Below are positions 40,640 through 57,139 of a stretch of 64,000 nucleotides of DNA, in pieces; the stretch's first letter is position 1, and the number at the start of each line of letters is the position of its first letter. Source of the stretch: a phage; assembly GCA_014685065.1 (NCBI GenBank), contig GCA_014685065.1_3930.1. One strand, written 5' to 3'. The translations under genes were made by a program, and so were the position numbers. The notes below the pieces were generated by a model. That model saw nothing but the letters and a program-made list of their open reading frames with translations. It was not told where the DNA came from and ran no database searches.

Positions 40640-42200
40640 TTTATCGGTTGTCCCAACCTCTGGGTCACCATCATATGTGAACAAAATATCTATCCTTCTT
40701 AACAACCTTTTTAATCTTACTCTCTATATAGTTATATAGTACTATATAGTATCTTAGTATCTATCTAGTGGTCTTAATAGCCCTCTATATAACCCTTCTA
40801 ACTAGCCTTCTAACAAGCCTTCTTAACAACCTATACAATCACCTTAACCATCTCTCTATACCCTCTTAGAAGCTCCTATACACCTCTTAATCTCTAGGTT
40901 AGATATGTTACCCTCTATAGGTGTTCACTAGGTATTACTAAGCCTCTATATAGACTGTTTTAACAAACTTAACAGGAATATCTTTACAGGCCTTATCTCA
41001 CAAGGTCTAACACGGTACTAACAAGGTATCTTATAAGCCTGTTTCTACCTGTATTTTTAAAAGACTGTATAGGTAATTATTCAGATTTTTAAAATTTTTA
41101 TAAAATAGGACTATCAAGTCATTTTTTAGGGTCTTTGAAGGAACTCAAAAATATCTGATTAGGATGTATATCTGCTTGGTAGCCCTTAACATCCCTGTAA
41201 CATCCCCTTTGCAGAATTTTAAAATATCCTTAACAATCTCTTAACAACTCTCTCAATCTCTTAACATCTCTTCAGAGGTCTTAACAGATTCTTAACATAA
41301 CTAACAAGGGCTTAACAGTTTCTTAACAGACGATACATGGTCTTTATAGTCTCTTAACAGATGACTAACAAGAGCTAACAAGTTAATTTTTAAGAGTTAT
41401 TTTGTTAAGATAATTAACAAGTTCCTAACAAGTGTTTAATCTTTTTAACAAGCTATTAACATGGTCACTATCTCTTTTCTTATCGTTCCCTTTCCTTTCT
41501 TAGTGAACTCTTAAACATACCTCTTAAAAGCTCTCTATAGCTCTGTATAGCCCCTTTTAAGCCTCTTCCTAGTAATTACACCCCAACTGTACAGATAGCT
41601 CTTTATAGGGCTTTACAGGAGCTTTTAAGGCTATGTCAAAGACTCTTACAAGGCTTTTACGTGGTCTTAACAGAGATTTAACAAGGGGCTAACAAGTTGC
41701 TAACAAGTGCCTTAAAAGCATAACTATGTAGGGATTGTTAAGAAATTGTTAAGAGAATGTTAAGGGGGCTAGCATTTACGTAACTTTGAAGATACATTTA
41801 CGTAACTTTTAAGCTACTTCAAAGTAACTTTATAACCCCTATAACATACTTTTTAGACACTATCAAGCCTTTTTAGATATTCACAAGAATACTAACGAGA
41901 CGATAAAGCTTACACCCTTATAAGATTCTTTTAAGTCTCTGGGAAGCTTTATAAAGGGCTTTTTAGGGTGAGTTAATGCAATCCCTTAAGTTAGGTTGAT
42001 AAGGCTGTTATAGAGCTTTATAGAGCGTTTAAACGGTTGCCCTTCCCTTTCGGGTTATGGGCTTATATTTAAGTTGATTTGATAAAAGGTTATAGAGTAG
42101 ACTATAGAGTTATTGCTTTTAAGGTATGAGATAGGTTCTATCGAATCAGTGGGAAGATTCTGGAAAGGAAAGGAAAGGGATTGTATAAGGATTCAATAGA
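40640..42200. repeat. ORF-free repeat-dense region (iteron-like CTTAACA arrays, TATAGAG boxes, tandem 15-mer)
   Basis: No ORF of 60 aa or more in 1.6 kb; at least 14 CTTAACA/CTAACAAG heptamers in 41221-41460, several ~11 bp apart; CCTCTATA(T)AG boxes; CATTTACGTAACTTT tandem at 41773/41795. Confidence 0.6.
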
Positions 42201-42202
42201 CG

Positions 42203-42230
42203 TAAAAAAGCCCCTTTAAATAGGGGCTGT
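42203..42230 (-). terminator. rho-independent terminator ending the minus-strand early cluster
   Basis: Perfect palindrome AGCCCCT-ATTTAA-AGGGGCT followed on minus strand by UUUUUU. Confidence 0.6.
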
Positions 42231-42266
42231 TCAGGTATCTGGGGCTATTTAGCCCCGTTGCGTCGA

Positions 42267-42515
42267 TTAGTTGTAACCTTGTTTATTGTAGTACAGGGAA
42301 ACAATCAAGTCACCCCAGTAATGATAGTGATGCTCGTCGTTTAATGCCTCTTTTACAGCATCTTTCCAGAAGTCATCAGTAGGGTTATAATCTGGAATAA
42401 CTTGTTTGATAACTGTCTTCACTAATGAAAAACACTCATCAGTTCCACCAATATCGAATTTAACGTCCAGAGTATAACAGCCATAGGCATTGACAGTTGC
42501 GCGGATAGTTGCCAT
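42267..42515 (-). CDS. hypothetical small protein (early cluster)
   Basis: 82 aa; preceded by type-A promoter/leader cassette and SD TAGGAGAT. Confidence 0.55.
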   Translation of the reverse strand: MATIRATVNAYGCYTLDVKFDIGGTDECFSLVKTVIKQVIPDYNPTDDFWKDAVKEALNDEHHYHYWGDLIVSLYYNKQGYN

Positions 42516-42607
42516 TTTAGAATCTCCTAGTTTAAGGGTTTTATTTAGTGGGGAGGTTATCGCCTCCCGTTGATTAGTAATTTACTGCATATTGGCGTAT
42601 GTTGCAA
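42516..42607 (-). promoter_or_regulatory. type-A cassette: promoter TTGCAA-N17-TAAATT plus conserved leader hairpin and SD
   Basis: Minus-sense -35/-10 at exact 17-bp spacing; transcribed hairpin CAACGGGAGG...CCTCCC; SD AGGAGAT. Confidence 0.55.
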
Positions 42608-42845
42608 GCCTTTTTTCGTTGTATTTTGTAAGAATCTCACAAGATACAACATCATACTTTGTGACAGCGTTGCCTTTGTCGAGGTCAAAAAAGCCAAACG
42701 CTTTACCATCTTTGAATCCGACAACTTCATAAGATTCTTTGATGATTTCACCATTGAATAAATCGCTTTCGATACGGTGAAACAGTGCTACATCTTCTTT
42801 GTCAGTTGCAATTTGTAAAAGTGTGGTTAATTCTACGTTTTCCAT
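42582..42845 (-). CDS. hypothetical small protein (early cluster)
   Basis: 87 aa; SD GGAG before ATG; type-A cassette upstream. Confidence 0.55.
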   Translation of the reverse strand: MENVELTTLLQIATDKEDVALFHRIESDLFNGEIIKESYEVVGFKDGKAFGFFDLDKGNAVTKYDVVSCEILTKYNEKRLATYANMQ

Positions 42846-42937
42846 CTTGATAACTCCAGTTTAGGACTTTATTTAGTGGGGAAGGTCATTCCCTCCCCGT
42901 TGATTGACAATTTACAGACTTTTTATTGTCTCGTCAA
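42846..42937 (-). promoter_or_regulatory. type-A cassette: promoter TTGACG-N17-TAAATT plus leader hairpin and SD
   Basis: Hairpin GGGGAGGGAATGACCTTCCCC in leader; same layout as other type-A copies. Confidence 0.55.
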
Positions 42938-43442
42938 TATCTTTTTCAATGTCTTTTAAAGTTTTTTCTAAGTTCTTGATATTGAAGGATAAACCTTCAC
43001 CGAGAGTCTTAGAGTAACCACTAGGACGTAAATTATACAGTTTAATTTCTTCCACTTTAAAGAGACTAACTAACTCACCGTTTACATCATAAGCCATTGA
43101 AACAGTATTTGCAGGTGCATTGTAAAACTTGTTTAGTGACTTGATAGAACGTTCATAAGCCATTTTATAACCGTTTAAAAGGCTTTTAACGTGGTTGTGA
43201 ACGTTTTTACACTCATCTAAGTAAATCTCTAAGAATAACGGTAATAATTCCGCTACAGCTTGCATAAAGTGAGAGACTACAACGGTTGAAACATTACGAC
43301 GATGAACGTAATAAGCCCCGTTTTCTGATTTGGTGATTGTTGCGAAATGTACCCCATTACAACGGAATTCGTATGTATCTTTTACAGGCTTAGACATTAC
43401 AGCATTTGAACGAATGAAGTTGATAGCTTGAAATTTGTTCAT
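42912..43442 (-). CDS. hypothetical protein (early cluster)
   Basis: 176 aa; type-A cassette upstream. Confidence 0.55.
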   Translation of the reverse strand: MNKFQAINFIRSNAVMSKPVKDTYEFRCNGVHFATITKSENGAYYVHRRNVSTVVVSHFMQAVAELLPLFLEIYLDECKNVHNHVKSLLNGYKMAYERSIKSLNKFYNAPANTVSMAYDVNGELVSLFKVEEIKLYNLRPSGYSKTLGEGLSFNIKNLEKTLKDIEKDIDETIKSL

Positions 43443-43530
43443 TTTAGAATCTCCAGTTTAGGACTTTATTTAGTGGGGAGGTTATTGCCTTCCCGTTGAT
43501 TAGTAATTTACTTGTTTTGATAGTTGATTG
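43443..43530 (-). promoter_or_regulatory. type-A cassette: promoter TTGCAA-N17-TAAATT plus leader hairpin and SD
   Basis: Conserved ACTAATCAACGGGAAGG...CCTCCCCACTAAATAAAG leader. Confidence 0.55.
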
Positions 43531-43662
43531 CAAGTAATTTTTTGAGCTTATCTATAAAGAATCTTTTAAGTGAATCCCTTTTAGATAAACCCCCTCGAAC
43601 AAAGTTACCAATGTCAAGGGGTATTGTCAACATTTTTTTAAAAGTTTTTTGTAAGTTATTGA

Positions 43663-44004
43663 TTAACTGATGAATATTTTTTCAGGTTTTACATAGCTGA
43701 TACGTTGGTTTTTTAGCAGGTCATCCCAGATTAACGCGGCGATATGGGCATAACCGGATTCACGTAAAAGCTTCATTGTTTTACTTCTCGTTTCAAAACG
43801 GCTTGCGTAGTACTCACTATTTAAAACCGTTTTATTCCCTTCGTTATCTACATGGATAATCTGCATCACTTGAAAGGGGCTTGTGTCCTCGCCTTTGTTC
43901 CACTGTTCAAAGTATTTTAGGCACTGCATAGGTGACATCTTATCACTTACTTGAGTTGACCAAGATGCGCCAGCTTTATCGGTAATTACGGTTACATAAG
44001 CCAT
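43663..44004 (-). CDS. hypothetical protein (early cluster)
   Basis: 113 aa; type-A cassette upstream; followed downstream by 160-bp spacer with tandem TTGACA boxes. Confidence 0.55.
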   Translation of the reverse strand: MAYVTVITDKAGASWSTQVSDKMSPMQCLKYFEQWNKGEDTSPFQVMQIIHVDNEGNKTVLNSEYYASRFETRSKTMKLLRESGYAHIAALIWDDLLKNQRISYVKPEKIFIS

Positions 44005-44100
44005 TTTTGAATCTCCTAGTTTAAGGACTTTATTTAGTGGGGAAGGTCATTCCCTCCCCGTTGATTGACAATTTACAGACTTTTATCAGGCTTGTCTAGT
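44005..44100 (-). promoter_or_regulatory. type-A cassette: promoter TAGACA-N17-TAAATT plus leader hairpin and SD
   Basis: Same conserved leader as other type-A copies. Confidence 0.5.
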
Positions 44101-44329
44101 CTTTTTCAATGATAATTTCATATTGACCGTCAACACTGTCGAAATAGATTCCGTCGTCATCTTCTGTCTTAAAGTAACATTGTATATCATCACTAGCGGG
44201 ATAGTCTTGTCTTGCTATCTGGCAAACTTGAATAGCATTTTCTTTACTTCCTGTAAACTCTTCAAGCCCTTTAAAATCGCATGAATGACCGTTACAAATA
44301 GAAAGGATGAGGTAAACGGTTGTAAGCAT
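44096..44329 (-). CDS. hypothetical small Cys-containing protein (early cluster)
   Basis: 77 aa; preceded by hairpin AGCCCCTTACAGGGGCT + UUUU and GGGAGG SD. Confidence 0.5.
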   Translation of the reverse strand: MLTTVYLILSICNGHSCDFKGLEEFTGSKENAIQVCQIARQDYPASDDIQCYFKTEDDDGIYFDSVDGQYEIIIEKD

Positions 44330-44339
44330 GATTTAAGCC

Positions 44340-44365
44340 TCCCAAAAGCCCCTGTAAGGGGCTAA
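44340..44365 (-). terminator. weak terminator/attenuator hairpin
   Basis: Minus-sense AGCCCCT-TACA-GGGGCT then UUUUGGGAGG (short U-tract). Confidence 0.35.
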
Positions 44366-44395
44366 ATAGTGTTTATAAGGTGATTGCATAGGTTT

Positions 44396-44938
44396 TTAGA
44401 AAAAGCTCTTTAAATCCTCTTCTGCGATGTTTCCTGTCAGTGTATCCATGATGTCACAAAAAACCTGAATATTGTCCGACTGTTGAACACTTTTAGCAAG
44501 TAGTTCTAATGTCTCATCAAGATAGTTCATATTTGGGTTATCCAGTGAAGGAAGACAAAAAGGCGAATACATAGCGTTAAACTCTGTTGTATAGACCTTT
44601 TTAATCCAGTTTACATCAAAGTACTCTGTAAAACTTGCTACACTCGACATATTATCACAAGAATAATCATCATTTAGCTCATCATCTGGAATATCGAGTT
44701 CTAAGATAACAATATTTTGGGTTTTCATCTGGAAGGCCGCCGTAATAGTGGCGTTCCCTAGAGCTTGCTGAATGCCCTCCGATGTTATCTCTTCATCATC
44801 GTCGCCATAGATTTTATTTTCTGGATACACGTAAAAATTGCCGTCCATATCCGAACAATTCCATGCGCCTGATGGTTTATCACCGTTATTAATCAGGTTG
44901 AGGAAATTTTCTTGAGTAGTTCCGTGATAACATTTCAT
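44396..44938 (-). CDS. hypothetical acidic protein (early cluster)
   Basis: 180 aa; type-B cassette upstream. Confidence 0.55.
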   Translation of the reverse strand: MKCYHGTTQENFLNLINNGDKPSGAWNCSDMDGNFYVYPENKIYGDDDEEITSEGIQQALGNATITAAFQMKTQNIVILELDIPDDELNDDYSCDNMSSVASFTEYFDVNWIKKVYTTEFNAMYSPFCLPSLDNPNMNYLDETLELLAKSVQQSDNIQVFCDIMDTLTGNIAEEDLKSFF

Positions 44939-45023
44939 TTTTGAATCTCCAGTTTAGGATTTAGTGGTAAAGCTCTTTATCTGAGGCTTAAGTTATCAAC
45001 TTTTAAGCCCCTTGTAAAGTACT
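44939..45023 (-). promoter_or_regulatory. type-B cassette: conserved palindrome + AGATAAAGAGCTTTACC box + SD
   Basis: GGGGCTTAA...TTAAGCC(T)C inverted repeat with variable loop, then conserved box and TGGAGATTC SD; TTTACA -35-like hexamer upstream. Confidence 0.45.
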
Positions 45024-45227
45024 TTATTTGTTATTTTTGACAACTTTTAAAACTGCAAGATAGCCTAAGCAATAAGAATCACCGAAGAGAGTCCTACCCA
45101 TGAAAGAATCCTCTTTGATATCCTTTGCAGTGACAGTTTTTTCTACGCCGTGGGAAAGGACTATATCACCAACTTTGATATCTTTGATGTGTGTAGTTTC
45201 AATGGTTAAACCATTAATAATATCCAT
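45024..45227 (-). CDS. hypothetical small protein (early cluster)
   Basis: 67 aa; type-A cassette upstream. Confidence 0.5.
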   Translation of the reverse strand: MDIINGLTIETTHIKDIKVGDIVLSHGVEKTVTAKDIKEDSFMGRTLFGDSYCLGYLAVLKVVKNNK

Positions 45228-45330
45228 TTTCAGAATCTCCAGTTTAGGACTTTATTTAGTGGGGGAGGTCATTCCCTCCCCGTTGATGTGTAATTTAGAC
45301 TATCTAAAAATCAGTGTCAACAAAAATTTT
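45228..45330 (-). promoter_or_regulatory. type-A cassette: consensus promoter TTGACA-N17-TAAATT plus leader hairpin and SD
   Basis: Exact TTGACA -35; leader hairpin GGGGAGGGAATGACCTCCCCC. Confidence 0.6.
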
Positions 45331-45735
45331 TTATAGTTCTGCATAAATTGCATCGCAGATATTACGGAAATCGTGATTTGCCAAATTACGCTGCAACCAA
45401 GTGGCGAAAAAGTCAGCGATTGCAAAGTTAGCATCATACTCGACAGATAACCACACTTTAACAGCAAATCGGAACATTTTCAAATCTAACTCTTTATTCA
45501 TTACCTTAGATTTGCCTAACATGTCGGCCATTTCATGTTGTGCACCGTCTAGCGTGATACCTGCTGCAACGTCAGTCAATGAGTTTTTTACGCTTTCAAC
45601 GTCTAAGATAACACTTTGAATCTTCCCAATAATGTTTTGCAGTGTTTCATCTGGTGCTGATGACGTGATAACATTAATCCGGTTAACGGTCAAACGTGCT
45701 TTTAAAATTGATAATTCACGGTTATTAATAGCCAT
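45331..45735 (-). CDS. hypothetical protein (early cluster)
   Basis: Start set at ATG (MAINN...) after SD TTGGAGAAC; ORF-track start is a TTG inside the SD. Confidence 0.5.
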   Translation of the reverse strand: MAINNRELSILKARLTVNRINVITSSAPDETLQNIIGKIQSVILDVESVKNSLTDVAAGITLDGAQHEMADMLGKSKVMNKELDLKMFRFAVKVWLSVEYDANFAIADFFATWLQRNLANHDFRNICDAIYAEL

Positions 45736-45821
45736 TTTTAAGTTCTCCAATTTAGGATTTAGTGGTAAAGCTCTTTATCTGGGGCTTACTTTATCGAACT
45801 ATAAGCCCCTTGTAAAGTACT
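45736..45821 (-). promoter_or_regulatory. type-B cassette
   Basis: GGGGCTTATAGTTCGATAAAGTAAGCCCC palindrome + AGATAAAGAGCTTTACC + SD. Confidence 0.45.
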
Positions 45822-46094
45822 TTACATTAAATGCAGTTTTTTGCCTTTTACTATAATGTAACTCGATGCGCTATTGCTTTGCAAATCTTGATAAATTCTG
45901 CGTAAACGTCCTTCGTAGTATACTTTCCAACTGGTTGGAATCTTTTTCCCGTATCCTGTAGCAGTTTTTTGGAGTCCTGCAACTTGCCAATTTAAGATGT
46001 GTTGCTCAGCCCGTAAATCTTCAAAGCACATCACACCGTCTACATAGTGACGCAAGGTGACATTTAAGGTGCGACCATTGTTAGTAGTGTACAT
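45822..46094 (-). CDS. hypothetical protein (early cluster)
   Basis: Start set at ATG (MYTTNNG...) after SD AGGAGC; track start is GTG overlapping upstream small ORF. Confidence 0.5.
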   Translation of the reverse strand: MYTTNNGRTLNVTLRHYVDGVMCFEDLRAEQHILNWQVAGLQKTATGYGKKIPTSWKVYYEGRLRRIYQDLQSNSASSYIIVKGKKLHLM

Positions 46095-46119
46095 TTTAAA
46101 AGCTCCTAGTTTAAGGGTT

Positions 46120-46278
46120 TTATTTTGACAGTTCACTAATTAAGACATCAAAGATTATATCATTATCTGCTACAGTTGCAACACCAGTGATATAATCAAT
46201 TTCTAGGATAACAACAACTTTCGTACATAAACCGTCATCTATATCATTCCAGACAACTTTATCACCTGCACAAAACAT
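46120..46278 (-). CDS. unlisted small ORF (~52 aa) with its own type-A cassette
   Basis: ATG preceded by TGGAGATTCTGAAA leader and full type-A promoter; below the 60-aa track cutoff. Confidence 0.45.
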   Translation of the reverse strand: MFCAGDKVVWNDIDDGLCTKVVVILEIDYITGVATVADNDIIFDVLISELSK

Positions 46279-46375
46279 TTTCAGAATCTCCAGTTTAGGA
46301 CTTTATTTAGTGGGGAAGGTCATTCCCTCCCCGTTGATGTGTAATTTAATCTATCTAAAAATCAGTGTCAACAGT
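46279..46375 (-). promoter_or_regulatory. type-A cassette: consensus promoter TTGACA-N17-TAAATT plus leader hairpin and SD
   Basis: Near-identical to cassette at 45228-45330. Confidence 0.6.
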
Positions 46376-46700
46376 TTTGTTTTCGTTTGCTCAATTCTTG
46401 AACAATTACAACGTAGTAGTCTTTTAAGTCACTGACATTTAAAGCATTTATCAGAGAATTATAATCATCAACTAACTGAAAATTATCTTTGAAGATGTCA
46501 CTTATCTGATAGGTTTTCGCTTTATATCTGAAGCTCATCTCTAGCCGCTTTATTTGCTCATCACTTAAACGCCCTAGAAAGCTTTCTACAAGGCTATTGC
46601 TAACCTGCTGGGTGGTTGCCTTATTTGCTAGATTATAGGCTTTATATGCCTTATATAGAGCGAAAATGGCAATGATTGCAGTGATACCAGTCATTAACAT
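46368..46700 (-). CDS. hypothetical membrane-anchored protein (early cluster)
   Basis: 110 aa; N-terminal hydrophobic helix. Confidence 0.5.
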   Translation of the reverse strand: MLMTGITAIIAIFALYKAYKAYNLANKATTQQVSNSLVESFLGRLSDEQIKRLEMSFRYKAKTYQISDIFKDNFQLVDDYNSLINALNVSDLKDYYVVIVQELSKRKQNC

Positions 46701-46990
46701 GGTGTTTCCTCTTTACGTGATACTTTGCCACTTACAGATATCTCATAAGATTCTAATAAATCGCTTTTAGACTTTACAGGACTTTTAAAAGTATCATCGT
46801 ATATATTAACTTGCAATACAGGTTTTTTATACTCCCTGCAACTATTCCATAAGCAAATTACTACACGACGGCCTTTTATTTTGCCATGTAACCATTCCAT
46901 AACATCATGACTATTTCTTGATGTCTCGATAAAATCAATTTTATTGAGTAATTTGCTAAGGTTTTCCCTAACTTTATTTGATAATTTCAT
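46694..46990 (-). CDS. hypothetical basic protein (early cluster)
   Basis: 98 aa; type-B cassette upstream. Confidence 0.5.
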   Translation of the reverse strand: MKLSNKVRENLSKLLNKIDFIETSRNSHDVMEWLHGKIKGRRVVICLWNSCREYKKPVLQVNIYDDTFKSPVKSKSDLLESYEISVSGKVSRKEETPC

Positions 46991-47081
46991 TTTTGAATCT
47001 CCTAGTTTAAGGGTTAATTTGATAAATCTCTTTATCTGGGGCTATCATATCCGCTTGTTAGCCCCGTGTAAAGAAATCTAT
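46991..47081 (-). promoter_or_regulatory. type-B cassette (variant)
   Basis: GGGGCTAACAAGCGGATATGATAGCCCC palindrome + AGATAAAGAGATTTATC + SD TAGGAGATTC. Confidence 0.4.
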
Positions 47082-47594
47082 TTAGTTCTTAAAGATATTC
47101 ATCACTGAATCTTTTAATGCTTCCAAGCGCTCTAATACTTCAGATTCTGCGTCTGCGTTGTTCACTTCCTCTTTTAGCCTGTCATCTAAATCATCGCCGT
47201 CACTGTAGCACCAATCGAAAGCGTAACCAATATAAAAACTTTCTAAAACAGTGCTGCCATTTGCATCTACAACTTTCGCGGCAATGTTATATTCTGAAGC
47301 CTCTAAATCTCTTTCTAGTTCTTTCTGTAAGCTGATGTAAGCCTCTTTTGATGGATTTGCCCGGCCTTGTTTTGCATAGTCACTTGAAAGCTGTTTAAGG
47401 CTGTAATGTAAAGGGATTGCATATTTAAATTCATTACGCTGACAGCTAGGATTTTTAATCGTCACACCGCCTTGATGGTCATCTGTAAATTCCCAATTAT
47501 CAAGATTATGGCTTGCTTCAAAGCAATTGACAGCTTCATAAATAATAGTGAATTTTTCTTTTACAACTTCAAAGGTAGCGTCTACAGTTTTCAT
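47082..47594 (-). CDS. hypothetical acidic protein (early cluster)
   Basis: 170 aa, Asp/Glu-rich C-terminus; type-B cassette upstream. Confidence 0.55.
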   Translation of the reverse strand: MKTVDATFEVVKEKFTIIYEAVNCFEASHNLDNWEFTDDHQGGVTIKNPSCQRNEFKYAIPLHYSLKQLSSDYAKQGRANPSKEAYISLQKELERDLEASEYNIAAKVVDANGSTVLESFYIGYAFDWCYSDGDDLDDRLKEEVNNADAESEVLERLEALKDSVMNIFKN

Positions 47595-47679
47595 TTTTGA
47601 ATCTCCAGTTTAGGATTGATTGGTAAAGCTCTTTATCTGGGGCTTAAGGTATCAGCTTTTAAGCCCCCTGTAAAGTACT
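47595..47679 (-). promoter_or_regulatory. type-B cassette
   Basis: GGGGGCTTAAAAGCTGATACCTTAAGCCCC palindrome + AGATAAAGAGCTTTACC + SD. Confidence 0.45.
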
Positions 47680-47973
47680 TTATTTGTTAATTTTCAGCTT
47701 TGCATAACTTCTCATTGTACGAATGGGGGATGTTAATGCTACGCGTCTAATGTATGCCTTTTTCGTGTATACATTTGTCTTCCCGATAGTGTTTACACAT
47801 GTAAAAAGGTTTATCGGTGAATTTTTTAACTTCAACTGTTTATCAACCTTCACGCCCCACCTTACAGCAGATTGTTTTCCATTGTCAACCACTTTCCCGC
47901 ATAACTTTTTAGCCATAACGCGAGCGTCATCACGAGTCTTTGCAGTAATTACAACGTTTTTGATAATAGCCAT
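47680..47973 (-). CDS. hypothetical basic protein (early cluster)
   Basis: Start set at ATG (MAIIKN...) after SD TTGGAGAAC; track start is a TTG inside the SD. Confidence 0.5.
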   Translation of the reverse strand: MAIIKNVVITAKTRDDARVMAKKLCGKVVDNGKQSAVRWGVKVDKQLKLKNSPINLFTCVNTIGKTNVYTKKAYIRRVALTSPIRTMRSYAKLKINK

Positions 47974-48058
47974 TTTTAAGTTCTCCAATTTAGGATTTAG
48001 TGGTAAAGCTCTTTATCTGGGCTTACTTTATCGAACTATAAGCCCCTTGTAAAGTTCT
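47974..48058 (-). promoter_or_regulatory. type-B cassette
   Basis: Near-identical to copy at 45736-45821. Confidence 0.45.
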
Positions 48059-48442
48059 TTATTTGTTAATTTTGAAGATAGTTACATAACCATCGCTGCC
48101 GATGATTTGTGATGCTCCAGCTTTTTCTACTTGATAGCCCATATTTTCAAGATGATAAACAGCATCATCATAACCATATGCGCCACCCTGATAACGTCTC
48201 TTATCGCATTTTATCAGGTTTTTACCACGTCCAGCAAGTGCATTCAGTACAGCTTTTTCACTTGATAGTGTGCCATCTAACATGGTTGCCGTGTAATGGT
48301 TGATTCTATTCCCGTTTACATCATACTTAAAATTGAATGCGTGAACAACGATAATGTTACCTTTAAAATTTTCATCAAGTGACTTCTCCAGTGCGTTGCG
48401 AAAGTTGTCTTTGTTGATGAATTTAGGTGCACGATATGCCAT
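48059..48442 (-). CDS. hypothetical protein (early cluster)
   Basis: 127 aa; type-B cassette upstream. Confidence 0.55.
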   Translation of the reverse strand: MAYRAPKFINKDNFRNALEKSLDENFKGNIIVVHAFNFKYDVNGNRINHYTATMLDGTLSSEKAVLNALAGRGKNLIKCDKRRYQGGAYGYDDAVYHLENMGYQVEKAGASQIIGSDGYVTIFKINK

Positions 48443-48532
48443 TTTTGAATCTCCTAGTTTAAGGGTTAATTTGGTAAAGCTCTTTATCTGGGGCTTACTT
48501 TATCGAACTATAAGCCCCATGTAAAGTACTTT
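48443..48532 (-). promoter_or_regulatory. type-B cassette
   Basis: GGGGCTTATAGTTCGATAAAGTAAGCCCC palindrome + AGATAAAGAGCTTTACC + SD TAGGAGATTC. Confidence 0.45.
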
Positions 48533-48754
48533 TTATTTATCGTAATAGTAAATCGCTGTTTGCCTTGTAAAATTCTTAGTATTTCTTGTAAGGTAGCAAT
48601 TAGAGTTTATAGCTGTTTCTACATAGTTGCAATAGTCAGCTTCTGATATTCTAGACCATACGCCACAAATTTGCATGTAAAAACGTTTTACCTTTGTGTT
48701 AACGTTAGTTGTAACCATCAATTCACGACTGTAAAGCATTATTTCGCGCTCCAT
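48533..48754 (-). CDS. hypothetical small protein (early cluster)
   Basis: 73 aa; overlaps upstream ORF by 16 nt; weak SD. Confidence 0.35.
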   Translation of the reverse strand: MEREIMLYSRELMVTTNVNTKVKRFYMQICGVWSRISEADYCNYVETAINSNCYLTRNTKNFTRQTAIYYYDK

Positions 48755-48927
48755 TTCTCAAAGAGTTCAGCAGGGAAACGTTCGCTATACCCTTTTAAGG
48801 AAAAAGTATTATCTTTGTGGATAGCTTCCACCTGATAAACCTTATAAGAGCGTATAGTTAGCATTTTGTAAGAGTATTCGTGCTTAATGTTAACCTCATC
48901 GCCAACTTTAATTTTTCTTGATGCCAT
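48739..48927 (-). CDS. hypothetical small protein, first gene of early cluster
   Basis: 62 aa; type-A cassette upstream. Confidence 0.5.
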   Translation of the reverse strand: MASRKIKVGDEVNIKHEYSYKMLTIRSYKVYQVEAIHKDNTFSLKGYSERFPAELFEKWSAK

Positions 48928-49035
48928 TTTTGAATCTCCAGTTTAGGATTTTATTTAGTGGGGAAGGTCATTCCCTCCCCGTTGATGTAAATATTAGATA
49001 ACCACGTTCAAAGAGTCAATAAAAATTTTAAAAAT
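48928..49035 (-). promoter_or_regulatory. type-A cassette: promoter TTGACT-N17-TAATAT plus leader hairpin and SD
   Basis: First cassette of the cluster; leader CAACGGGGAGGGAATGACCTTCCCC. Confidence 0.55.
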
Positions 49036-49129
49036 ATTTTTGGCAAAACTGTAATGAAACGGGTGCGCACGACTACCACAAAACAGAACGCAAATCAAGA
49101 ATTATTTTTCAATCCGCTACAAATTTTTC

Positions 49130-49400
49130 TCTTGACTTTTGGGGAGAGGGGGAGTAAGAGGGGGAGAGGGGTTGGGCTGGCTGTCTATAAAAACCTACCT
49201 GCACAATTCTAAAATGATTTTTCTTGCCCGACCTGAGCGGGGTCTGCACGTTTTGAAAATGAAAAAGCTCTTTGGAGATTACCTGCACAGTTTGAAAATG
49301 AATTTTCTCTTTGGAGTTCAAAATTTTCTCTATAGATTTCTCTACAGAACTCTACCTGCACAAATCTGAAATGAAAAAGCCCTCCTTACCTGAAAAATTT
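49130..49400. repeat. G-rich polypurine tract followed by four direct repeats of a ~22-bp box
   Basis: GGGGAGAGGGGGAGTAAGAGGGGGAGAGGGG at ~49142-49172; ACCTGCACA..T.TGAAAATGA-type box at ~49197, 49239, 49282, 49353. Confidence 0.5.
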
Positions 49401-49447
49401 ACCAGATAAGAAAGGCTTAGGCTATTGTGAATATCCTACAGAGTTTC

Positions 49448-50233
49448 TTAGTTCTTTGCGTCTAAGAAGGTAACTTCTGGTGAAGAGAAGATTGCCTCAA
49501 TACCCTCATCAGTTCTTGCATAGATATAAGCTTCTGCATCACTACCAAATGTTACAGCAATTCTGTGATTGCTCTTTGACAGGTGGGTAACTAGAGCGTT
49601 ACTTAGAGACATCTTTTCAACCGGAGGGTTACTTTGATGTGTCTTACCTTTTCTTCGTCTGAAGAGGGTAACTGCGTTATCTGTGAACACTGCTACACCT
49701 GCAAAGTATTCTGGTTCACAGTAGTTCTTCCAACCTGAGAGTAACTTGTGGTACATCTCTCCTTCATAGACATATAGATAAACATCTACACTCTTCATCA
49801 CCTGATTGATGATAACTGTGACGGCTTGAGGGTCAAGTCCACCGATACCTGCACCAATCATAGGTAAACCAACTTTCTTCAACTGATTAACTTCACAGTA
49901 TCTGTTAAGTTGCTTCAAAGACGACTCTAAAGCACTGTATCGGGCATCTTTACCAGTCTTAAGCTGAGTGTAAAGGTTAGCTATACGACCTTGTTTTAAG
50001 CGTGCTACAGAGAAATTACCTAGTAAATTCTCACAGGGTTTGTGACCTATACCACCTGCATAGAGATAAACTTCTGTATCGGTCTCATATGCTTTTGGGT
50101 AAAGTTTAGAAATCTTGTCAGCGATACCTGCACCCATTAGGTTCATGCAGTTACAACCATGACCAATGATGTCAAACTTACCTTTATCAAATGCAGCAAA
50201 GATATCACCATTGATGATTTTTACAATACCCAT
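49448..50233 (-). CDS. macro-domain protein (TARG1/DarG-like ADP-ribose hydrolase fold) with C-terminal extension
   Basis: 261 aa; N-terminal 150 aa has macro-domain signatures (IINGDIF, DIIGHGCNCMNLMGAGIA, LPMIGAGIGGLD) resembling TARG1-type macrodomains. Confidence 0.55.
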   Translation of the reverse strand: MGIVKIINGDIFAAFDKGKFDIIGHGCNCMNLMGAGIADKISKLYPKAYETDTEVYLYAGGIGHKPCENLLGNFSVARLKQGRIANLYTQLKTGKDARYSALESSLKQLNRYCEVNQLKKVGLPMIGAGIGGLDPQAVTVIINQVMKSVDVYLYVYEGEMYHKLLSGWKNYCEPEYFAGVAVFTDNAVTLFRRRKGKTHQSNPPVEKMSLSNALVTHLSKSNHRIAVTFGSDAEAYIYARTDEGIEAIFSSPEVTFLDAKN

Positions 50234-53583: not shown

Positions 53584-54693
53584 TTAGATTTCACGTTTAC
53601 GCTGAGAGATAAGTTCACCAGCAGTGCCAACGATGACATGCAAAGCTTCAGTCTTGCCATTCCATGCTTTCAGTACTTTACGTTGATTATCAACGATTGC
53701 TGCAACTTCATAACGAGACGAGCGCATCTTCATATCGTTGTAATCAGTTGGTACGGATACAACGTCTCGTGGATGGACACGAACCTTCAGAATTGTATCA
53801 CCTGAGAAGTAACGAACATAATCCCAAGCACCAACGTGAAGACCTTGAGAGCAAGTCACGTTACGGTTATTATCAACCATCCAACGTGGCATTTCTACAA
53901 TGTTACCCAAATCATTAGGTACTTTGCAGGTGCGGGAGTCAACCAGCTTGCCTTCACGAGTAGAGACTTTCTTCCAACCAATGATGTAGCCTTCTTCATC
54001 AATTTCAACATCAAGGTGAGATATGAATCCCCAAAGTTGTTCTACAGAATCTTTAGATGGGTTTTCCATCAGTTTTTCGAAGAACATTACAAGTCGTTCA
54101 AAACCTTTATCACCAGTCTTCATCATGTGAAGGATACGGTCAACCAGAGTAGAACGCATCTCAACAGCACCGTAGAATAGCTTATCACCTTTGATTGTGA
54201 TAGCTCCCTGCGTGAAGTTTTCGATAGACTTACGAATGTTCATCAGTTCAAAGGCTTTCTTGAACTCACCTTTCACAACATGAACTACAATCTCTTGATA
54301 GTTCGGATGAGTAGACTCAACAATTTCAGATTCTGGACCGTAAGTCATAATTACAGAGTCGCCAGTAATCATGTACTCAATCTTGTCATCTTTCTGCATA
54401 GCTTCGTGCAGTTTATTTACTGGAGCTTTCTGTACAGAATCTTTAACAACCTTTTTAACTGGCTTGTCAGCTTTCTTTTTAAAGGTCTTAGCAACTTGCT
54501 TCAAAGTCTTCGTAGCTGGTTTAGAAGCTACCTTTTTCTTACCTTTTAAGGTTGCTTCATGACGCTCTACAGCACGACCAACTGAACGGGTTGAAGTATT
54601 GAACTTCTGTGCGATAGCTGTTTTAGTCAGCTTACCTTCTTTAACCAGTTCGTAAATTTCTGCGTCAATCTGTGCTTTAGTTTTAGTAGTCAT
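53584..54693 (-). CDS. rIIB: rIIB-like protein
   Basis: 369 aa directly downstream of rIIA-like gene; Lys-rich N-terminal region; assignment mainly by synteny. Confidence 0.4.
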   Translation of the reverse strand: MTTKTKAQIDAEIYELVKEGKLTKTAIAQKFNTSTRSVGRAVERHEATLKGKKKVASKPATKTLKQVAKTFKKKADKPVKKVVKDSVQKAPVNKLHEAMQKDDKIEYMITGDSVIMTYGPESEIVESTHPNYQEIVVHVVKGEFKKAFELMNIRKSIENFTQGAITIKGDKLFYGAVEMRSTLVDRILHMMKTGDKGFERLVMFFEKLMENPSKDSVEQLWGFISHLDVEIDEEGYIIGWKKVSTREGKLVDSRTCKVPNDLGNIVEMPRWMVDNNRNVTCSQGLHVGAWDYVRYFSGDTILKVRVHPRDVVSVPTDYNDMKMRSSRYEVAAIVDNQRKVLKAWNGKTEALHVIVGTAGELISQRKREI

Positions 54694-54772
54694 CTTATTA
54701 CTCTCTCTTGTTAGTTAATAAATCATTTTGTGAGGTTATTCTAAGGGGCTTTGAAGCCCCTTGTCAAATACT
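54694..54772 (-). promoter_or_regulatory. candidate promoter with hairpin in the spacer (TTGACA-N17-TTAGAAT)
   Basis: Minus-sense TTGACA, then AGGGGCTTCAAAGCCCC palindrome as 17-bp spacer, then TTAGAAT; upstream of rIIB-like gene. Confidence 0.4.
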
Positions 54773-57139
54773 TTAATCGTAAATTGTAGTCCCTTCTGGA
54801 ACACACTTCACATCAAAGCCTAAGAACTTACTCACTTCAATAGGTGACACTTTATTCCAATCTAAATGAGAAAGCAAGAAGTTCTCTTGTTTTCTTTTTG
54901 AAAGGTAGTTTGTCACCTTAATGACCATGCGGTCACCAGCTTTCTTAATTTTCTTGTACAGCTTTGTATCATTGTCAAGGCATTCTTTCAAAGTTTGCAA
55001 TCTACTAACAGTGTAAGTGTATGCAAACGGTGCAGCAACGTATTGGATTTTACCGAACATTGCCTCTACAGCCTCTTCATTACCTTCTAGGAAGATAGTT
55101 TTGTTTGTATCCCGTGAATAGCAATAACCACGAGAAATCTTCCTATTATTGAATGTAAAGTTTCTGGCAATAATCCAGCTACTTGTAAGGTCAAGAACAC
55201 CATTCATGTAGATGCGTGTCATATACCTGTTATGATTAATCCAATGAACATCAGTTAAGCTGTCATTCAAGAGCTTCTCATCTACTTCAATCCAGTCTTC
55301 TGGTATCTTTTTCCAATTTGCTTTTCGGAAAACATAGACTGTCTTTCCAATAACATTAGCAACTGACTTAGCTACATCTTCTGGGGATGAGCAAAAACAT
55401 CTACCATCAACTGTGTCGCCTACTGCCTTGATATAAAGCTGAGACTCTTCAATTGTGTCTAAGTCCTCTGACACCTCTTTGTAGGAGGCTACACCTTCTG
55501 CTGGAACAGCTTTCCAGAGTTTTACAACACCTCTTACAGCTTCTTTACGCTGGTAATGGTGTTCCTTATCAGACATTTTCACAATCTTTAACAAGCTTTT
55601 ATCAAGTTTGTGCAGATTGATTAAGTCATCTAACTCTTTTTCAGTCGAGAATACAAAGACAATACCATTGTATCTGTGAAACAGACTAGACTCACTTGCA
55701 TAGTCTCGACATGCACCACGCAAGATTTGGTTACGCCCAACAGTCTTCTCAGTGCCATTTTTATTTCGACGGTCATTAATCACGAACAAAAACTGTCCAA
55801 TCTGGCTTTTGCGCATTGCACCAAAGATGTTGAACATGCTTGCCTCTTGAGTGTAGGATAGTGCTGTTGCACGAATCTTACTCTCTAAAGAGTTAAACTT
55901 GACATAAGCAACTGGGTCATAAAGATAATCTACTTTAGGGATATTGTTCCCGTTCCTATCAACCTTAATATTACCTTTACCGTCACGTTCGTAAATGACT
56001 GAGCCGTCTTCTGCGTAGATAATTCCACGACGAATGTTTAGCAATTCTTCTTCCAGAGAATCAAGCTTAACGCCACCCCACTCTAGCTTTGGACACACAG
56101 CATTAAACATCTCTCGTGAGTTCAAACGTAACTCAGCATAAGCCTGTGCAGCATCCATGAGTGTAGGTTGGCTATTAACTTTCTTGATAACATCCTTTGT
56201 AATGGCTTCAGTTATCTTTTTAGTAGCCTCAATGATAACATTTTTTGTCGTGTCATTCATCTGCAATGCTTCACGAGAAGCTGCAATAGCAACTGAACCA
56301 ATAGGCATGTAGATGTTTACAAGGTCTACGCTCCTACGGAAAAACTCTGGCAAGACTTTGAAGAAATCATCACCAAGTAACGCTTCCATGTTCACTGGAT
56401 AGGCAATGTTACCCATCACCACATTAAACTCTGTCCTGTTATCACTAGAACGCCAGCTGTGCTTATGAATCATGGCATCATAAACACCTTCTTCACGGGC
56501 AATTACGTTCATATCTGCTAATACATCGTCGTACTCAATATTACTTTCTGGTTTTACAGTGAAGTATGAGTACACATTCCCAGCTTCTTCAAAGAACTTT
56601 GAGATACGGTGGTCAGCAACTGCCACACGTACAGCTAAACCATTAGGTTCTTTTGTTTGGTTAGTTGTCAGCTTAGTTACTTGAGGGATACCATTCTCAA
56701 GATAAACAGAGTACTTATTAACAACACCGTCAACATAACTAGATACTGTGAATGACTGAGCAATTGCAAATGGTGACTTTGAGCCGATACCCATTGCACC
56801 AATGTAGTCATTAGAGTCATTCTTCGTAGAAGCTCCATAGTTTAGGTACAAACTCATAACTTTATCATGAGTCAATCCAGTTCCAAAATCACGAACTTCG
56901 AAGTAAGGCTCAAAACGAGTAGGTAAATGCACATGGAATGGGATGTTCTCTTTTCCAGCTTCTTTCTGAGCATCTACTGCGTTACATGACAGTTCACGAA
57001 TCACTGCCCTTTCTTTAAAGGTATATACACCAGAACTCAAAAGGCTGAACATCTCAGGTGTCATTGTAATCTGTGCTTGAGACGTCTCTAAAGAAGTTGA
57101 ACTCTTAATCACTTCTGCGTGGTCATTTACCATGCGCAT
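54773..57139 (-). CDS. rIIA: rIIA-like protein with GHKL-type ATPase N-terminus
   Basis: 788 aa; N-terminal Bergerat-fold N-box-like motif (VIRELSCNAVDA) and G-rich loop (GAMGIGSKSPF). Confidence 0.55.
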   Translation of the reverse strand: MRMVNDHAEVIKSSTSLETSQAQITMTPEMFSLLSSGVYTFKERAVIRELSCNAVDAQKEAGKENIPFHVHLPTRFEPYFEVRDFGTGLTHDKVMSLYLNYGASTKNDSNDYIGAMGIGSKSPFAIAQSFTVSSYVDGVVNKYSVYLENGIPQVTKLTTNQTKEPNGLAVRVAVADHRISKFFEEAGNVYSYFTVKPESNIEYDDVLADMNVIAREEGVYDAMIHKHSWRSSDNRTEFNVVMGNIAYPVNMEALLGDDFFKVLPEFFRRSVDLVNIYMPIGSVAIAASREALQMNDTTKNVIIEATKKITEAITKDVIKKVNSQPTLMDAAQAYAELRLNSREMFNAVCPKLEWGGVKLDSLEEELLNIRRGIIYAEDGSVIYERDGKGNIKVDRNGNNIPKVDYLYDPVAYVKFNSLESKIRATALSYTQEASMFNIFGAMRKSQIGQFLFVINDRRNKNGTEKTVGRNQILRGACRDYASESSLFHRYNGIVFVFSTEKELDDLINLHKLDKSLLKIVKMSDKEHHYQRKEAVRGVVKLWKAVPAEGVASYKEVSEDLDTIEESQLYIKAVGDTVDGRCFCSSPEDVAKSVANVIGKTVYVFRKANWKKIPEDWIEVDEKLLNDSLTDVHWINHNRYMTRIYMNGVLDLTSSWIIARNFTFNNRKISRGYCYSRDTNKTIFLEGNEEAVEAMFGKIQYVAAPFAYTYTVSRLQTLKECLDNDTKLYKKIKKAGDRMVIKVTNYLSKRKQENFLLSHLDWNKVSPIEVSKFLGFDVKCVPEGTTIYD

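Follow-up and report, generated by a model that had tools for sequence, protein, structure and literature searches.

Repeated promoter-hairpin cassettes ahead of small genes near a genome end of a Felix O1-like phage resemble the mobile regulatory cassettes of T4-like phages

Promoter-early stem-loops (PeSLs) are mobile regulatory cassettes described from the T4-like phages RB49/phi1, T4/PST and KVP40/nt-1 (Arbiol et al., 2010, PMC2839356; Comeau et al., 2014, PMC4122927), and for RB49/phi1 promoter and terminator activity in reporters, as well as mini-circles, have been demonstrated (PMC2839356). Here we analyzed 13 short repeats, hereafter cassettes, in positions 42267-49022, minus strand, of a 64,000-nucleotide stretch of phage DNA (GenBank assembly GCA_014685065.1, contig GCA_014685065.1_3930.1), the whole of which is called the window. 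Sequence searches assigned the window to Felixounavirus, subfamily Ounavirinae, that is, to a Felix O1-like myovirus. The cluster holds 17 credible small open reading frames (ORFs), an 18th (43508-43633, 41 aa) being doubtful, and its cassettes fall into two types, seven of type A and six of type B. The 13 copies are probably composite cassettes of the PeSL type, combining a promoter, an RNA hairpin and a recombination substrate, in an accessory region by the genome end. Judged by its sequence, the array of Felix O1-like phages is best described as a system of PeSL-type mobile regulatory cassettes from a phage lineage new to them.

Both sequences have been recorded before. In the Felix O1 genome paper they are plain direct repeats, not counted among the predicted promoters, and temporal regulation is called unknown (Whichard et al., 2010, PMC3185647); the 57-bp repeat CTTTACATGGGGCTTA... 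listed there is type B, and the 39-bp repeat TTGACACTGG...TAAATTACACATCAAC is type A. Features DR_1 to DR_9 of the wV8 GenBank record (NC_012749) are the same sequences, given without a promoter, structure or recombination reading, and the wV8 paper makes no mention of these sequences. In the ASO1A record, type-A copies are annotated as "promoter" and "terminator", with the hairpins marked as rho-independent. A literature search, in which subscription journals were thinly covered, found no paper interpreting these repeats in Felix O1-like phages.

The cassettes are widespread. Megablast of 42267-49035 returned 256 phage records, the top ones being Felixounavirus of Escherichia, Salmonella and Shigella; phage finno, among the best matches, has 92% identity at 94% query coverage. 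A search with a single type-A cassette found 1131 places in 251 phage records, and one with a single type-B cassette 1349 places in 288. Type A occurs in Felixounavirus, Suspvirus and Mooglevirus, and type B additionally in Erwinia Kolesnikvirus phages. Because the places per record are mostly not above the cluster counts, these searches suggest that most or all copies lie in the cluster.

In the window, cassettes were located from the 130 nt upstream of every minus-strand ORF, and then with nhmmer profiles and by pattern search. The profiles, made from the window copies, recovered all 13 sites (E 1e-19 to 1e-27), and the scan of the full 64 kb gave no further cassette, its one weak extra match (E 2e-4) being that of the type-A profile to the Shine-Dalgarno (SD) module shared by type B. 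A chance origin of the repeats is excluded. As an initial annotation made from the sequence alone had held, all 13 sites precede ORF starts; none lies elsewhere in the 64 kb. The same annotation gave each of about 17 genes its own copy; the 17 ORFs are credible, and only 13 cassettes serve them.

Each cassette has its 5' edge at the stop codon of the upstream gene, in A/T-rich DNA (in type B, for example, the TAA inside AAATAAAG, preceding TTTACA), and its 3' edge at the next start codon. A GGAG SD module, 8-9 nt before the ATG, is common to both types, and its alleles CCTAAACTGGAG and CCTTAAACTAGGAG are each found behind type-A and type-B cores alike. Type A consists of an A-rich stretch, the -35 hexamer, 17 nt, TAAATT, 10 nt, a hairpin, ACTAAATAAAG, CCTAAACTGGAGATTC and the ATG (at 48927, 46278, 45227, 44004, 43442, 42845 and 42515). 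The sigma-70-like promoter, 17-nt spacer and transcribed hairpin claimed for the seven type-A copies were found as described, on the minus strand. The spacer is 17 nt in 7/7. The near-consensus hexamers then listed are present, and the list had left out TTGACT, TAGACA and one TAATAT: the full -35 set is TTGACT, TTGACA (twice), TAGACA, TTGCAA (twice) and TTGACG, and the -10 is TAAATT in six copies and TAATAT in one. Likewise, the type-A hairpin had been called almost invariant, which fits the five of seven copies where CAACGGGGAGGGAATGACCTTCCCCAC is exact or has one mismatch; the other two are shorter variants with the pairing retained. Type B (ATGs at 48442, 47973, 47594, 46990, 45735 and 44938, two of these ORFs having their ATG 15 nt downstream of the TTG chosen by the ORF finder) contains a palindrome with a variable loop, a box that is AGATAAAGAGCTTTACC in 5/6 copies and AGATAAAGAGATTTATC in one, and the SD module. 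The cassettes, all on the minus strand and listed from the upstream end, are as follows.

48925..49022, minus strand: type-A cassette 1; TTGACT, 17 nt, TAATAT, hairpin, SD, ATG 48927; nhmmer E 2e-24; promoter scan 49019..48991
48440..48545, minus strand: type-B cassette 1; TTTACA, 17 nt, TAAAGT within the long hairpin, SD, ATG 48442; promoter scan 48525..48497
47971..48073, minus strand: type-B cassette 2; ATG 47973; 3' arm TAAGCCC, one C fewer; promoter scan 48053..48025
47592..47694, minus strand: type-B cassette 3; TTTACA, 17 nt, TACCTT; three-tier hairpin of -24.6 kcal/mol, z -3.25; nhmmer
46988..47092, minus strand: type-B cassette 4, a variant; TTTACA, 17 nt, TATGAT; stem GGGGCTA/TAGCCCC, with an unbroken 13-bp lower stem, -27.2 kcal/mol, z -5.46; nhmmer and promoter scan
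46279..46374, minus strand: type-A cassette 2; TTGACA, 17 nt, TAAATT (46371..46343); hairpin from G46332; predicted start near 46336/46335; nhmmer and promoter scan
45733..45834, minus strand: type-B cassette 5; TTTACA, 17 nt, TAAAGT (45816..45788); predicted start near 45781/45780; ATG 45735; nhmmer and promoter scan
45228..45323, minus strand: type-A cassette 3; TTGACA, 17 nt, TAAATT; nhmmer and promoter scan
44936..45038, minus strand: type-B cassette 6; TTTACA, 17 nt, TAACTT; 3' arm TAAGCCTC, giving a G-U pair; nhmmer
44002..44101, minus strand: type-A cassette 4; TAGACA, 17 nt, TAAATT; nhmmer and promoter scan
43440..43536, minus strand: type-A cassette 5; TTGCAA, 17 nt, TAAATT; weaker hairpin GGGAAGG...CCTCCCC; nhmmer
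42843..42940, minus strand: type-A cassette 6; TTGACG, 17 nt, TAAATT; nhmmer and promoter scan
42513..42610, minus strand: type-A cassette 7; TTGCAA, 17 nt, TAAATT; hairpin variant GGGAGG/CCTCCC; nhmmer

For comparison, the homologous region was taken from 15 other Ounavirinae phages (L001-L015, including Felix O1, wV8, Citrobacter phage Mordin, SUSP2 and Erwinia phage SunLIRen), which with the window made 16 loci. Among these, the 17-nt spacer of type A is kept in 63/63 distinct promoter regions with about 39 spacer sequences, which form several apparently unrelated groups, and in 62/63 distinct copies the hairpin's first G comes exactly 10 nt after the -10. Since the hexamers are held at a fixed distance across unrelated spacers, this is the signature expected of a working sigma-70 promoter, and type A looks like such a promoter followed by a transcribed hairpin. 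The promoter of type B had been overlooked in the initial annotation. In the window, an invariant CTTTACA stands ahead of the palindrome and is followed after exactly 17 nt by TAAAGT, TACCTT, TATGAT or TAACTT; over the 16 loci, 47/47 distinct copies have TTTACA and TAnnnT 17 nt apart, or 18 nt apart in the two whose loop is longer, and vary in the three middle bases of the -10 and in the rest of the loop. A promoter scanner independently called 4/6 of the type-B promoters, and A-rich runs lie upstream of the -35 in the cassettes. The arrangement resembles the PeSL promoter consensus of T4/PST, TTTACW-N17-TAYWAT (PMC4122927), and type B looks like a promoter embedded in a long hairpin.

With the start taken about 7 nt after the -10, a type-A transcript would begin with (C)AAC and enter the hairpin immediately, about 3 nt from the predicted 5' end. 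The stem (6-8 bp in the window, 4-8 bp over the subfamily) is kept through sequence change, its arms being GGGGAGGG/CCTTCCCC, GGGAGG/CCTCCC, GGGGGA/TCCCCC, GGGGAAG/CTTCCCC, GGGGC/GCCCC, GGGC/GCCC or GGGA/TCCC, and the common form has a folding energy of -15 kcal/mol. Pairs were counted from the stem base, as the MAFFT alignment of the leaders put unequal stems out of register, and RNAalifold on that alignment returned just 3 invariant pairs. Among 37 distinct hairpins, levels 1-3 are near-invariant G-C. Level 4 is G-C in 19, A-U in 10, C-G in 4, G-U in 3 and unpaired in 1, and level 6 is G-C in 19, G-U in 7, A-U in 5 and unpaired in 1; over levels 4-6, pairing is 83-97%. An arm-swap test was weakly discriminating (native mean -10.75 vs. 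-8.65 kcal/mol for chimeras).

Two further observations concern the type-A leader. A third leader variant occurs upstream of the first cluster gene in Mordin (L008), SUSP2 (L009) and L001, L003, L005 and L013. It has the same promoter and SD modules, with a short unrelated hairpin, ACGGGCAA(T/G)CAAGCCCAC, replacing the GGGGAGGG hairpin and starting 11 nt instead of 10 nt after the -10, which shows the hairpin module to be exchangeable. A second type-A stem-loop, in which the -35 pairs with bases after the -10, stood out in two promoter subtypes (z -2.9 and -3.6), was missing from the rest (z -0.1 to +0.8), and is not claimed.

Folding of whole type-B cassettes showed that the invariant box is not a free-standing site. 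It forms the 3' strand of a long hairpin, AGATAAAGAGCTTTA pairing with TAAAGTACTTTA, the strand that holds the -35. The predicted fold stacks helices of 6, 5 and 9 bp (the last within a range of 7-9 bp; about 20 bp in total). A 1x1 mismatch and an internal loop of 3x3 part the helices, and an 11-nt loop containing the -10 tops them. Three copies folded at -21.6 (z -4.0, 0/200 shuffles), -24.6 (z -3.3) and -27.2 kcal/mol (z -5.5). Covariation was scored for 18 pairs (6 + 5 + 7, the top two pairs of the upper helix being omitted) over 52 distinct aligned copies. Pairing held in 97.2% of cells, compared with 32-60% when the 3' partner was slid by 1-3 columns, and the covariation score was reached by 0/500 shuffles. 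Four pairs are altered on both sides, compensation being seen in lower and upper helices alike (G-C 38 and U-A 9 in the lowest helix; G-C 50 and U-A 2 in the upper, the latter in the Erwinia phage copies). U-G pairs are common (19/52 at one position, 48/52 at another) and would be C-A mismatches on the other strand, so it is the sense strand that carries the structure, in the simplest case as RNA. The comparison shows both structures: the hairpins are backed by compensatory changes and sense-strand G-U pairs across Ounavirinae. The predicted start of type B is the 3' foot of the upper helix, and the full hairpin would thus be possible only in read-through RNA from the upstream gene. The type-B gene's own leader, downstream of that start, is unstructured (-4.5 kcal/mol, z +0.1), so a leader switch controlling translation in type B is not supported.

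The gene content of the cluster varies along the cassettes. A gene-order map was built by orienting the 16 loci, calling ORFs, clustering their proteins and marking cassette matches. Gene order is conserved, and whole cassette-plus-ORF modules are present or absent among relatives. The slot of 45024-45227 is occupied in Mordin and SUSP2 by another ORF family between the same cassette types, and ASO1A carries both families; the family of 48739-48927 takes another slot in Mordin, and wV8 has one additional module. When the cassette left at a deletion was aligned with both window cassettes flanking the missing gene, it proved in register and chimeric at 7/7 deletions, with the upstream flank and 5' part matching the left window cassette and the 3' part and gene start the right one. 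The crossover point differs by junction, lying after the box, inside the stem-loop, between hairpin and SD, or after the ATG. Such scattered crossovers and chimeras are predicted by homologous recombination between neighbouring cassettes, not by a site-specific mechanism. The main evolutionary point, which the initial annotation had missed, is that on this comparison the cassettes are the recombination joints of a modular accessory-gene array.

Near-identity of the copies had been attributed to selection on the cassette itself. That the cassettes are under selection is plausible: identity between genera is 79-84% for cassettes (68% for the sole shared type-A slot in SUSP2) vs. 71-73% for adjacent coding DNA. 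The near-identity reflects recombination among the copies as well. Between genera, the copies within a genome resemble one another (0.76-0.88) as closely as they do their positional orthologues (0.68-0.84). All nine distinct type-B copies of Mordin begin their stem with GGGGTT and both Erwinia-phage copies have GGTG/CACC; because such lineage-specific stem variants recur within one genome, some homogenisation of copies is indicated.

One stretch varies outside this pattern. In 45822-46278 (minus strand), and also in finno, KEP1, NBEco004 and ASO1A, a 52-aa ORF with no family in the PHROG database lies between a type-A cassette and the phrog_3436 gene, which there has a GTG start and 14 additional N-terminal residues.

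On the reading we prefer, host sigma-70 RNA polymerase would initiate a transcript at each cassette. The type-A hairpin, by analogy with E. coli mRNA decay, would act as a 5'-terminal mRNA stabiliser, and the type-B hairpin in read-through RNA may be a 3' barrier, attenuator or processing site that insulates neighbours. As the comparison shows, the approximately 100-nt cassettes recombine homologously, deleting, inserting or replacing modules and partly homogenising their copies. Several points weigh against this account. A generic scan was only weakly enriched for promoter-like matches in the region (37 vs. 26.4 +/- 5.3 expected), and the type-B -10 hexamers are weak (TAAAGT, TACCTT, TAACTT) and followed by a G/C-rich discriminator. 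The literature search, with its thin coverage of subscription journals, found no transcript 5' or 3' ends for any Ounavirinae phage, and we therefore infer promoter use and start sites. RT-PCR in Felix O1 placed the maxima of ORFs 16, 20, 21 and 22 at 5 min and those of ORFs 14, 17, 19 and 23 at 25 min (PMC3185647), a timing by which the cluster is not plainly early and type-A and type-B genes are not clearly split. In BLAST comparisons with 12 Felixounavirus loci, 45/61 internal ends of high-scoring segment pairs and 18/22 distinct breakpoints fall within cassettes, which make up 21% of the region; this enrichment is partly built in, because the intergenic DNA is nearly all cassette and an indel that leaves genes whole has to end in one, and breakpoints, like indels, are phylogenetically non-independent events. 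The in-register chimeric junctions are the stronger argument. Two of the four non-cassette breakpoints, 46124 and 45880, lie in the 45822-46278 stretch noted above. Finally, there is no U tract after either hairpin, the next bases being ACTAAATAAAG in type A and AGATAAAGAG in type B, which makes intrinsic termination unlikely; attenuation, 3'-end protection or endonucleolytic processing are possible.

The last point bears directly on the alternative that survives best, namely that the stem-loops are terminators or attenuators, each gene being transcribed mostly from its own promoter and type A attenuating transcription from upstream. We regard it as possible, though it falls well short of the cassette reading. 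In RB49/phi1, a G-run/C-run PeSL cut lacZ expression in vivo as much as rrnB T1 did (PMC2839356), and the annotators of ASO1A took the type-A hairpins for rho-independent terminators. Compared with the definition of an intrinsic terminator (a hairpin directly followed by a U tract), the cassette hairpins fell outside it, and the terminator scan of the gene strand was passed only by 49418..49377 and 42228..42209, which border the cluster:

49377..49418, minus strand: canonical intrinsic terminator, upstream border; t13 of Felix O1; terminator scan and PMC3185647 Table 2
42209..42228, minus strand: canonical intrinsic terminator, downstream border; t23 of Felix O1; terminator scan and PMC3185647 Table 2

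Moreover, a type-A hairpin comes after the start predicted for its own cassette, where it would also stop its own transcript, and four gene pairs of the cluster have no intervening hairpin.

Somewhat less likely is that the type-B hairpin is mainly a processing site in polycistronic read-through RNA, of the RNase III type or for another endonuclease, which would yield monocistronic units with a protective 3' hairpin, the promoter hexamers being secondary or unused. The shape of the hairpin suits this: about 20 bp in three helices with a 1x1 mismatch and a 3x3 loop, folding energies between -21.6 and -27.2 kcal/mol (lowest z -5.5), compensatory changes in lower and upper helices alike, a position exactly between cistrons, and a resemblance to the RNase III sites of T7. 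It leaves the promoter signals unaccounted for, as the T and A of the -10 are invariant within a variable loop, its closing T lies in the conserved stem, and the distance to TTTACA is fixed at 17 nt. An Rfam 15 scan of 41500-50000 on both strands gave no match at E <= 1. Processing and promoter roles are in any case mutually compatible.

If the cassettes were purely regulatory, their near-identity would be due to purifying selection only and recombination would be incidental. The excess of cassette identity between genera over coding DNA (mostly 0.79-0.84 vs. 0.71-0.73) agrees with this, and the invariant positions are the functional ones (-35, TA...T and the stems). We nevertheless hold it improbable, for it does not account for the 7/7 junctions that are in-register chimeras of neighbouring cassettes, for modules that come and go independently by lineage, with slots holding differing ORFs and an ORF family displaced in Mordin, or for lineage-specific stem variants that recur among the paralogous copies of one genome.

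Lytic phages commonly shut off their early genes in a co-ordinated way, and in every type-B promoter the palindrome extends over the -35, the spacer and the -10, so the inverted repeats might be thought DNA operators for a dimeric phage or host repressor that shuts off the whole cluster. This is very unlikely: many copies pair only through sense-strand T-G, which breaks the symmetry of a DNA palindrome, type-A stems differ between lineages with pairing retained, and no candidate regulator was identified. An integron-like array with attC-like hairpins and a site-specific recombinase, which the locus superficially recalls in its array of small ORFs, imperfect inverted repeats of 60-100 nt and cassette-wise gain and loss, was rejected as highly implausible given the scattered crossovers, a promoter in every cassette, unlike integron cassettes, and the absence of a recognised recombinase among 17 ORFs without a Pfam domain.

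The genes behind the cassettes are small (52-180 aa), and the earlier statement that proteins of 50-180 aa lack recognised domains held up: the 17 ORFs had no Pfam domain and only noise in NCBIfam. Sixteen belong to 16 different primary PHROG families, all of function unknown, and one has no family. The host-takeover or anti-defence arsenal that the initial annotation saw in this gene set is a candidate reading. ORFs 48533-48754, 46368-46700 and 45822-46136 overlap or abut the upstream gene and have no cassette of their own.

48739..48927, minus strand: ORF of 62 aa, phrog_15633, function unknown
48533..48754, minus strand: ORF of 73 aa, phrog_5293; overlaps the upstream ORF, without its own cassette
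48059..48442, minus strand: ORF of 127 aa, phrog_4495; module missing in Felix O1 and ASO1A
47680..47973, minus strand: ORF of 97 aa, phrog_5089; module missing in Felix O1, GEP101 and SP2
47082..47594, minus strand: ORF of 170 aa, phrog_4190; module missing in Barry, wV8 and Pr103Blw
46694..46990, minus strand: ORF of 98 aa, phrog_4401
46368..46700, minus strand: ORF of 110 aa, phrog_4375; overlaps the upstream ORF, without its own cassette
46120..46278, minus strand: ORF of 52 aa, no PHROG; in some relatives only
45822..46136, minus strand: ORF of 104 aa, GTG start, phrog_3436 (match over residues 15-104)
45331..45735, minus strand: ORF of 134 aa, phrog_4327
45024..45227, minus strand: ORF of 67 aa, phrog_3623
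44396..44938, minus strand: ORF of 180 aa, phrog_3303; predicted ADP-ribosyltransferase-like fold
44096..44329, minus strand: ORF of 77 aa, phrog_4640; in place of a cassette, a terminator-like hairpin at 44340-44363 and an SD of its own lie upstream
43663..44004, minus strand: ORF of 113 aa, phrog_4318
42912..43442, minus strand: ORF of 176 aa, phrog_4725; confident model with non-specific coiled-coil structural matches only
42582..42845, minus strand: ORF of 87 aa, phrog_7022; module missing in at least four phages (Felix O1, NBEco004, JK55 and garuso)
42267..42515, minus strand: ORF of 82 aa, phrog_4559; last gene of the cluster

The equivalent of 44340-44363 is annotated as a terminator in the records of wV8 and Barry. 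Sequence searches of the Protein Data Bank (PDB) with the four largest ORFs gave nothing meaningful, and structure models were made for the two largest. A precomputed Pfam family, PF26821, is assigned to all close homologues of ORF 42912-43442, and our Pfam-A scan gave no match for it at E <= 0.01, presumably owing to a difference in library version.

ORF 44396-44938 has 42 homologues (42-94% identity), and the long contigs that carry them are all phage-sized, at approximately 85-90 kb. Its model (pLDDT 86, pTM 0.83) falls in the ADP-ribosyltransferase fold class, with which Foldseek concurs at weak scores; Pfam and PDB sequence searches gave no significant match for this ORF. Residues 5-8 (H-G-T-T) are nearly invariant and Y36 is invariant, and residue 119 is E in most homologues and D, K, Y or C in others. 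H5-G-T-T and Y36 recall the H-Y-E class of ADP-ribosyltransferases, in which the catalytic triad is H-Y-E or R-S-E, but the acidic third residue shows no clear conservation here. The modelled protein is thus like an ADP-ribosyltransferase in fold, with a candidate activity of that kind.

The readings of type B can be combined: its 70 nt would be a promoter as DNA and, as read-through RNA, a hairpin that is cut by an RNase III-like nuclease or blocks elongation, making each gene an insulated, self-contained unit at whatever place recombination puts it, with a cargo that includes ORF 44396-44938 as an early ADP-ribosyltransferase so far overlooked. This ORF is encoded about 4.5 kb downstream of the gene for a macro-domain protein. 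Taken as a whole the proposal is speculative and rather unlikely, but if it were true, the cassettes would be a portable plug-and-play module of expression and insulation shared across Ounavirinae, and Felix O1-like phages would possess a host-modification system, which the original genome paper reported as absent.

In a CRISPRi-ART screen of SUSP1 on laboratory E. coli, the homologous genes AVU07_agp095 to agp108 were all scored "Not Fit" (PMC11879866, supplementary data 8 and 16), and the PHROG numbers of agp095 and agp097-agp103 match those of window ORFs. The homologous cluster of SUSP1 is dispensable in the laboratory, which agrees with the patchy distribution of the genes.

The macro-domain gene (49448-50233, Pfam Macro, E 1e-7) lies upstream of the cluster. 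At the other side, the annotated 581-bp direct terminal repeat of Pr103Blw begins about 460 bp past the last cluster gene, so the cluster adjoins the physical genome end. Downstream, approximately 40700-42200 is about 1.5 kb of non-coding DNA dense in the short repeats TGTTAAG / CTTGTTAG and CTATAGAG / CTTTATAA; as the terminal repeat of Pr103Blw lies here, it is probably the genome terminus or packaging region. Between the terminator of the macro gene and the first cassette, 49100-49375 contains 4-5 copies of a 30-34-nt repeat (plus strand, (ACCT)GCACA..TTTTGAAAATGA...), which could be a regulator-binding array preceding the first promoter, and a tract of 40 nt, rich in C when read along the gene strand, occupies 49143-49182. 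Between the last gene and the true terminator, at 42241-42256 (minus strand), a lone hairpin, GGGGCTAAATAGCCCC followed by AGATA, resembles the upper stem of type B and has no promoter or SD; it is possibly the leftover of a lost module. Outside the cluster, 54735-54773 (minus strand) holds a PeSL-like promoter (TTGACA, 18-nt spacer, TAGAAT), and about 35 nt further downstream an ORF starts at 54693. The spacer of this promoter is nearly all hairpin, GGGGCTT-CAA-AGCCCC; the promoter has the AAGTAnTTnACAAGGGGCTT core in common with type B, and the box is absent.

Felix O1-like phages are widely used in typing, biocontrol and therapy of Salmonella and E. coli. Reading the repeats as promoter-hairpin cassettes yields 13 specific predicted start sites and offers an explanation for the variation between isolates at this genome end. 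For phage engineering, it would point to sites where insertion is naturally tolerated and to portable units of expression. The ADP-ribosyltransferase-like ORF, in turn, offers a specific candidate for host modification or anti-defence. Gene shuffling by mobile regulatory cassettes would extend beyond T4-like phages, which suggests that a general means of trading accessory genes along with their expression signals has evolved convergently in lytic phages.

Several described systems share parts of this architecture. The hairpin of the ompA 5' untranslated region (UTR) is reportedly a 5'-terminal mRNA stabiliser (Emory, Bouvet and Belasco, 1992). Type A likewise has a stable hairpin with few unpaired nucleotides at the 5' end, about 3 nt after the predicted start, but it recurs here on numerous mRNAs of a single phage, and the start is a predicted one. 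The early region of T7 has intercistronic RNase III processing hairpins without promoters. Type B is similar by architecture, its hairpins too being irregular, about 20 bp long, interrupted by an internal loop and set between short cistrons, and differs in containing a promoter. The Bacillus phage SPO1 is said to carry a host-takeover module in its terminal redundancy (Stewart et al., 1998), which resembles this cluster in having approximately two dozen small early genes of unknown function at a genome end with many strong promoters of the sigma-A/sigma-70 type and strong ribosome-binding sites; the SPO1 promoters are not described as near-identical recombining cassettes, and for the present genes early timing and a takeover role are candidate properties.

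The closest likeness is to PeSLs. These too are repeats of about 100 nt comprising an upstream stop codon, an A/T-rich stretch, a sigma-70-type promoter, a G-run/C-run stem-loop, an SD and a start codon, with the stem-loop either between or over the hexamers, as in type B, or right after the -10, as in type A. Their copies are concentrated in a variable region ahead of ORFs without known function, and indels and replacements among close relatives are bounded by the repeats. There are also differences. The original hosts are T4-like, whereas the present cassettes belong to Ounavirinae, with genomes of about 87 kb and direct terminal repeats, and the two are likened by architecture, not sequence. 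Here two sharp types lie in one cluster of approximately 7 kb, compared with about 50 copies over several regions in RB49/phi1. The three-tier fold of type B, about 20 bp in all, in which the -35 region is joined through the lower helices to the bases transcribed first, does not appear in PMC2839356 or PMC4122927. Because the PeSL family is defined by architecture and not by descent, the cassettes of Felix O1-like phages are best regarded as its analogue in a new lineage, not as a homologue.

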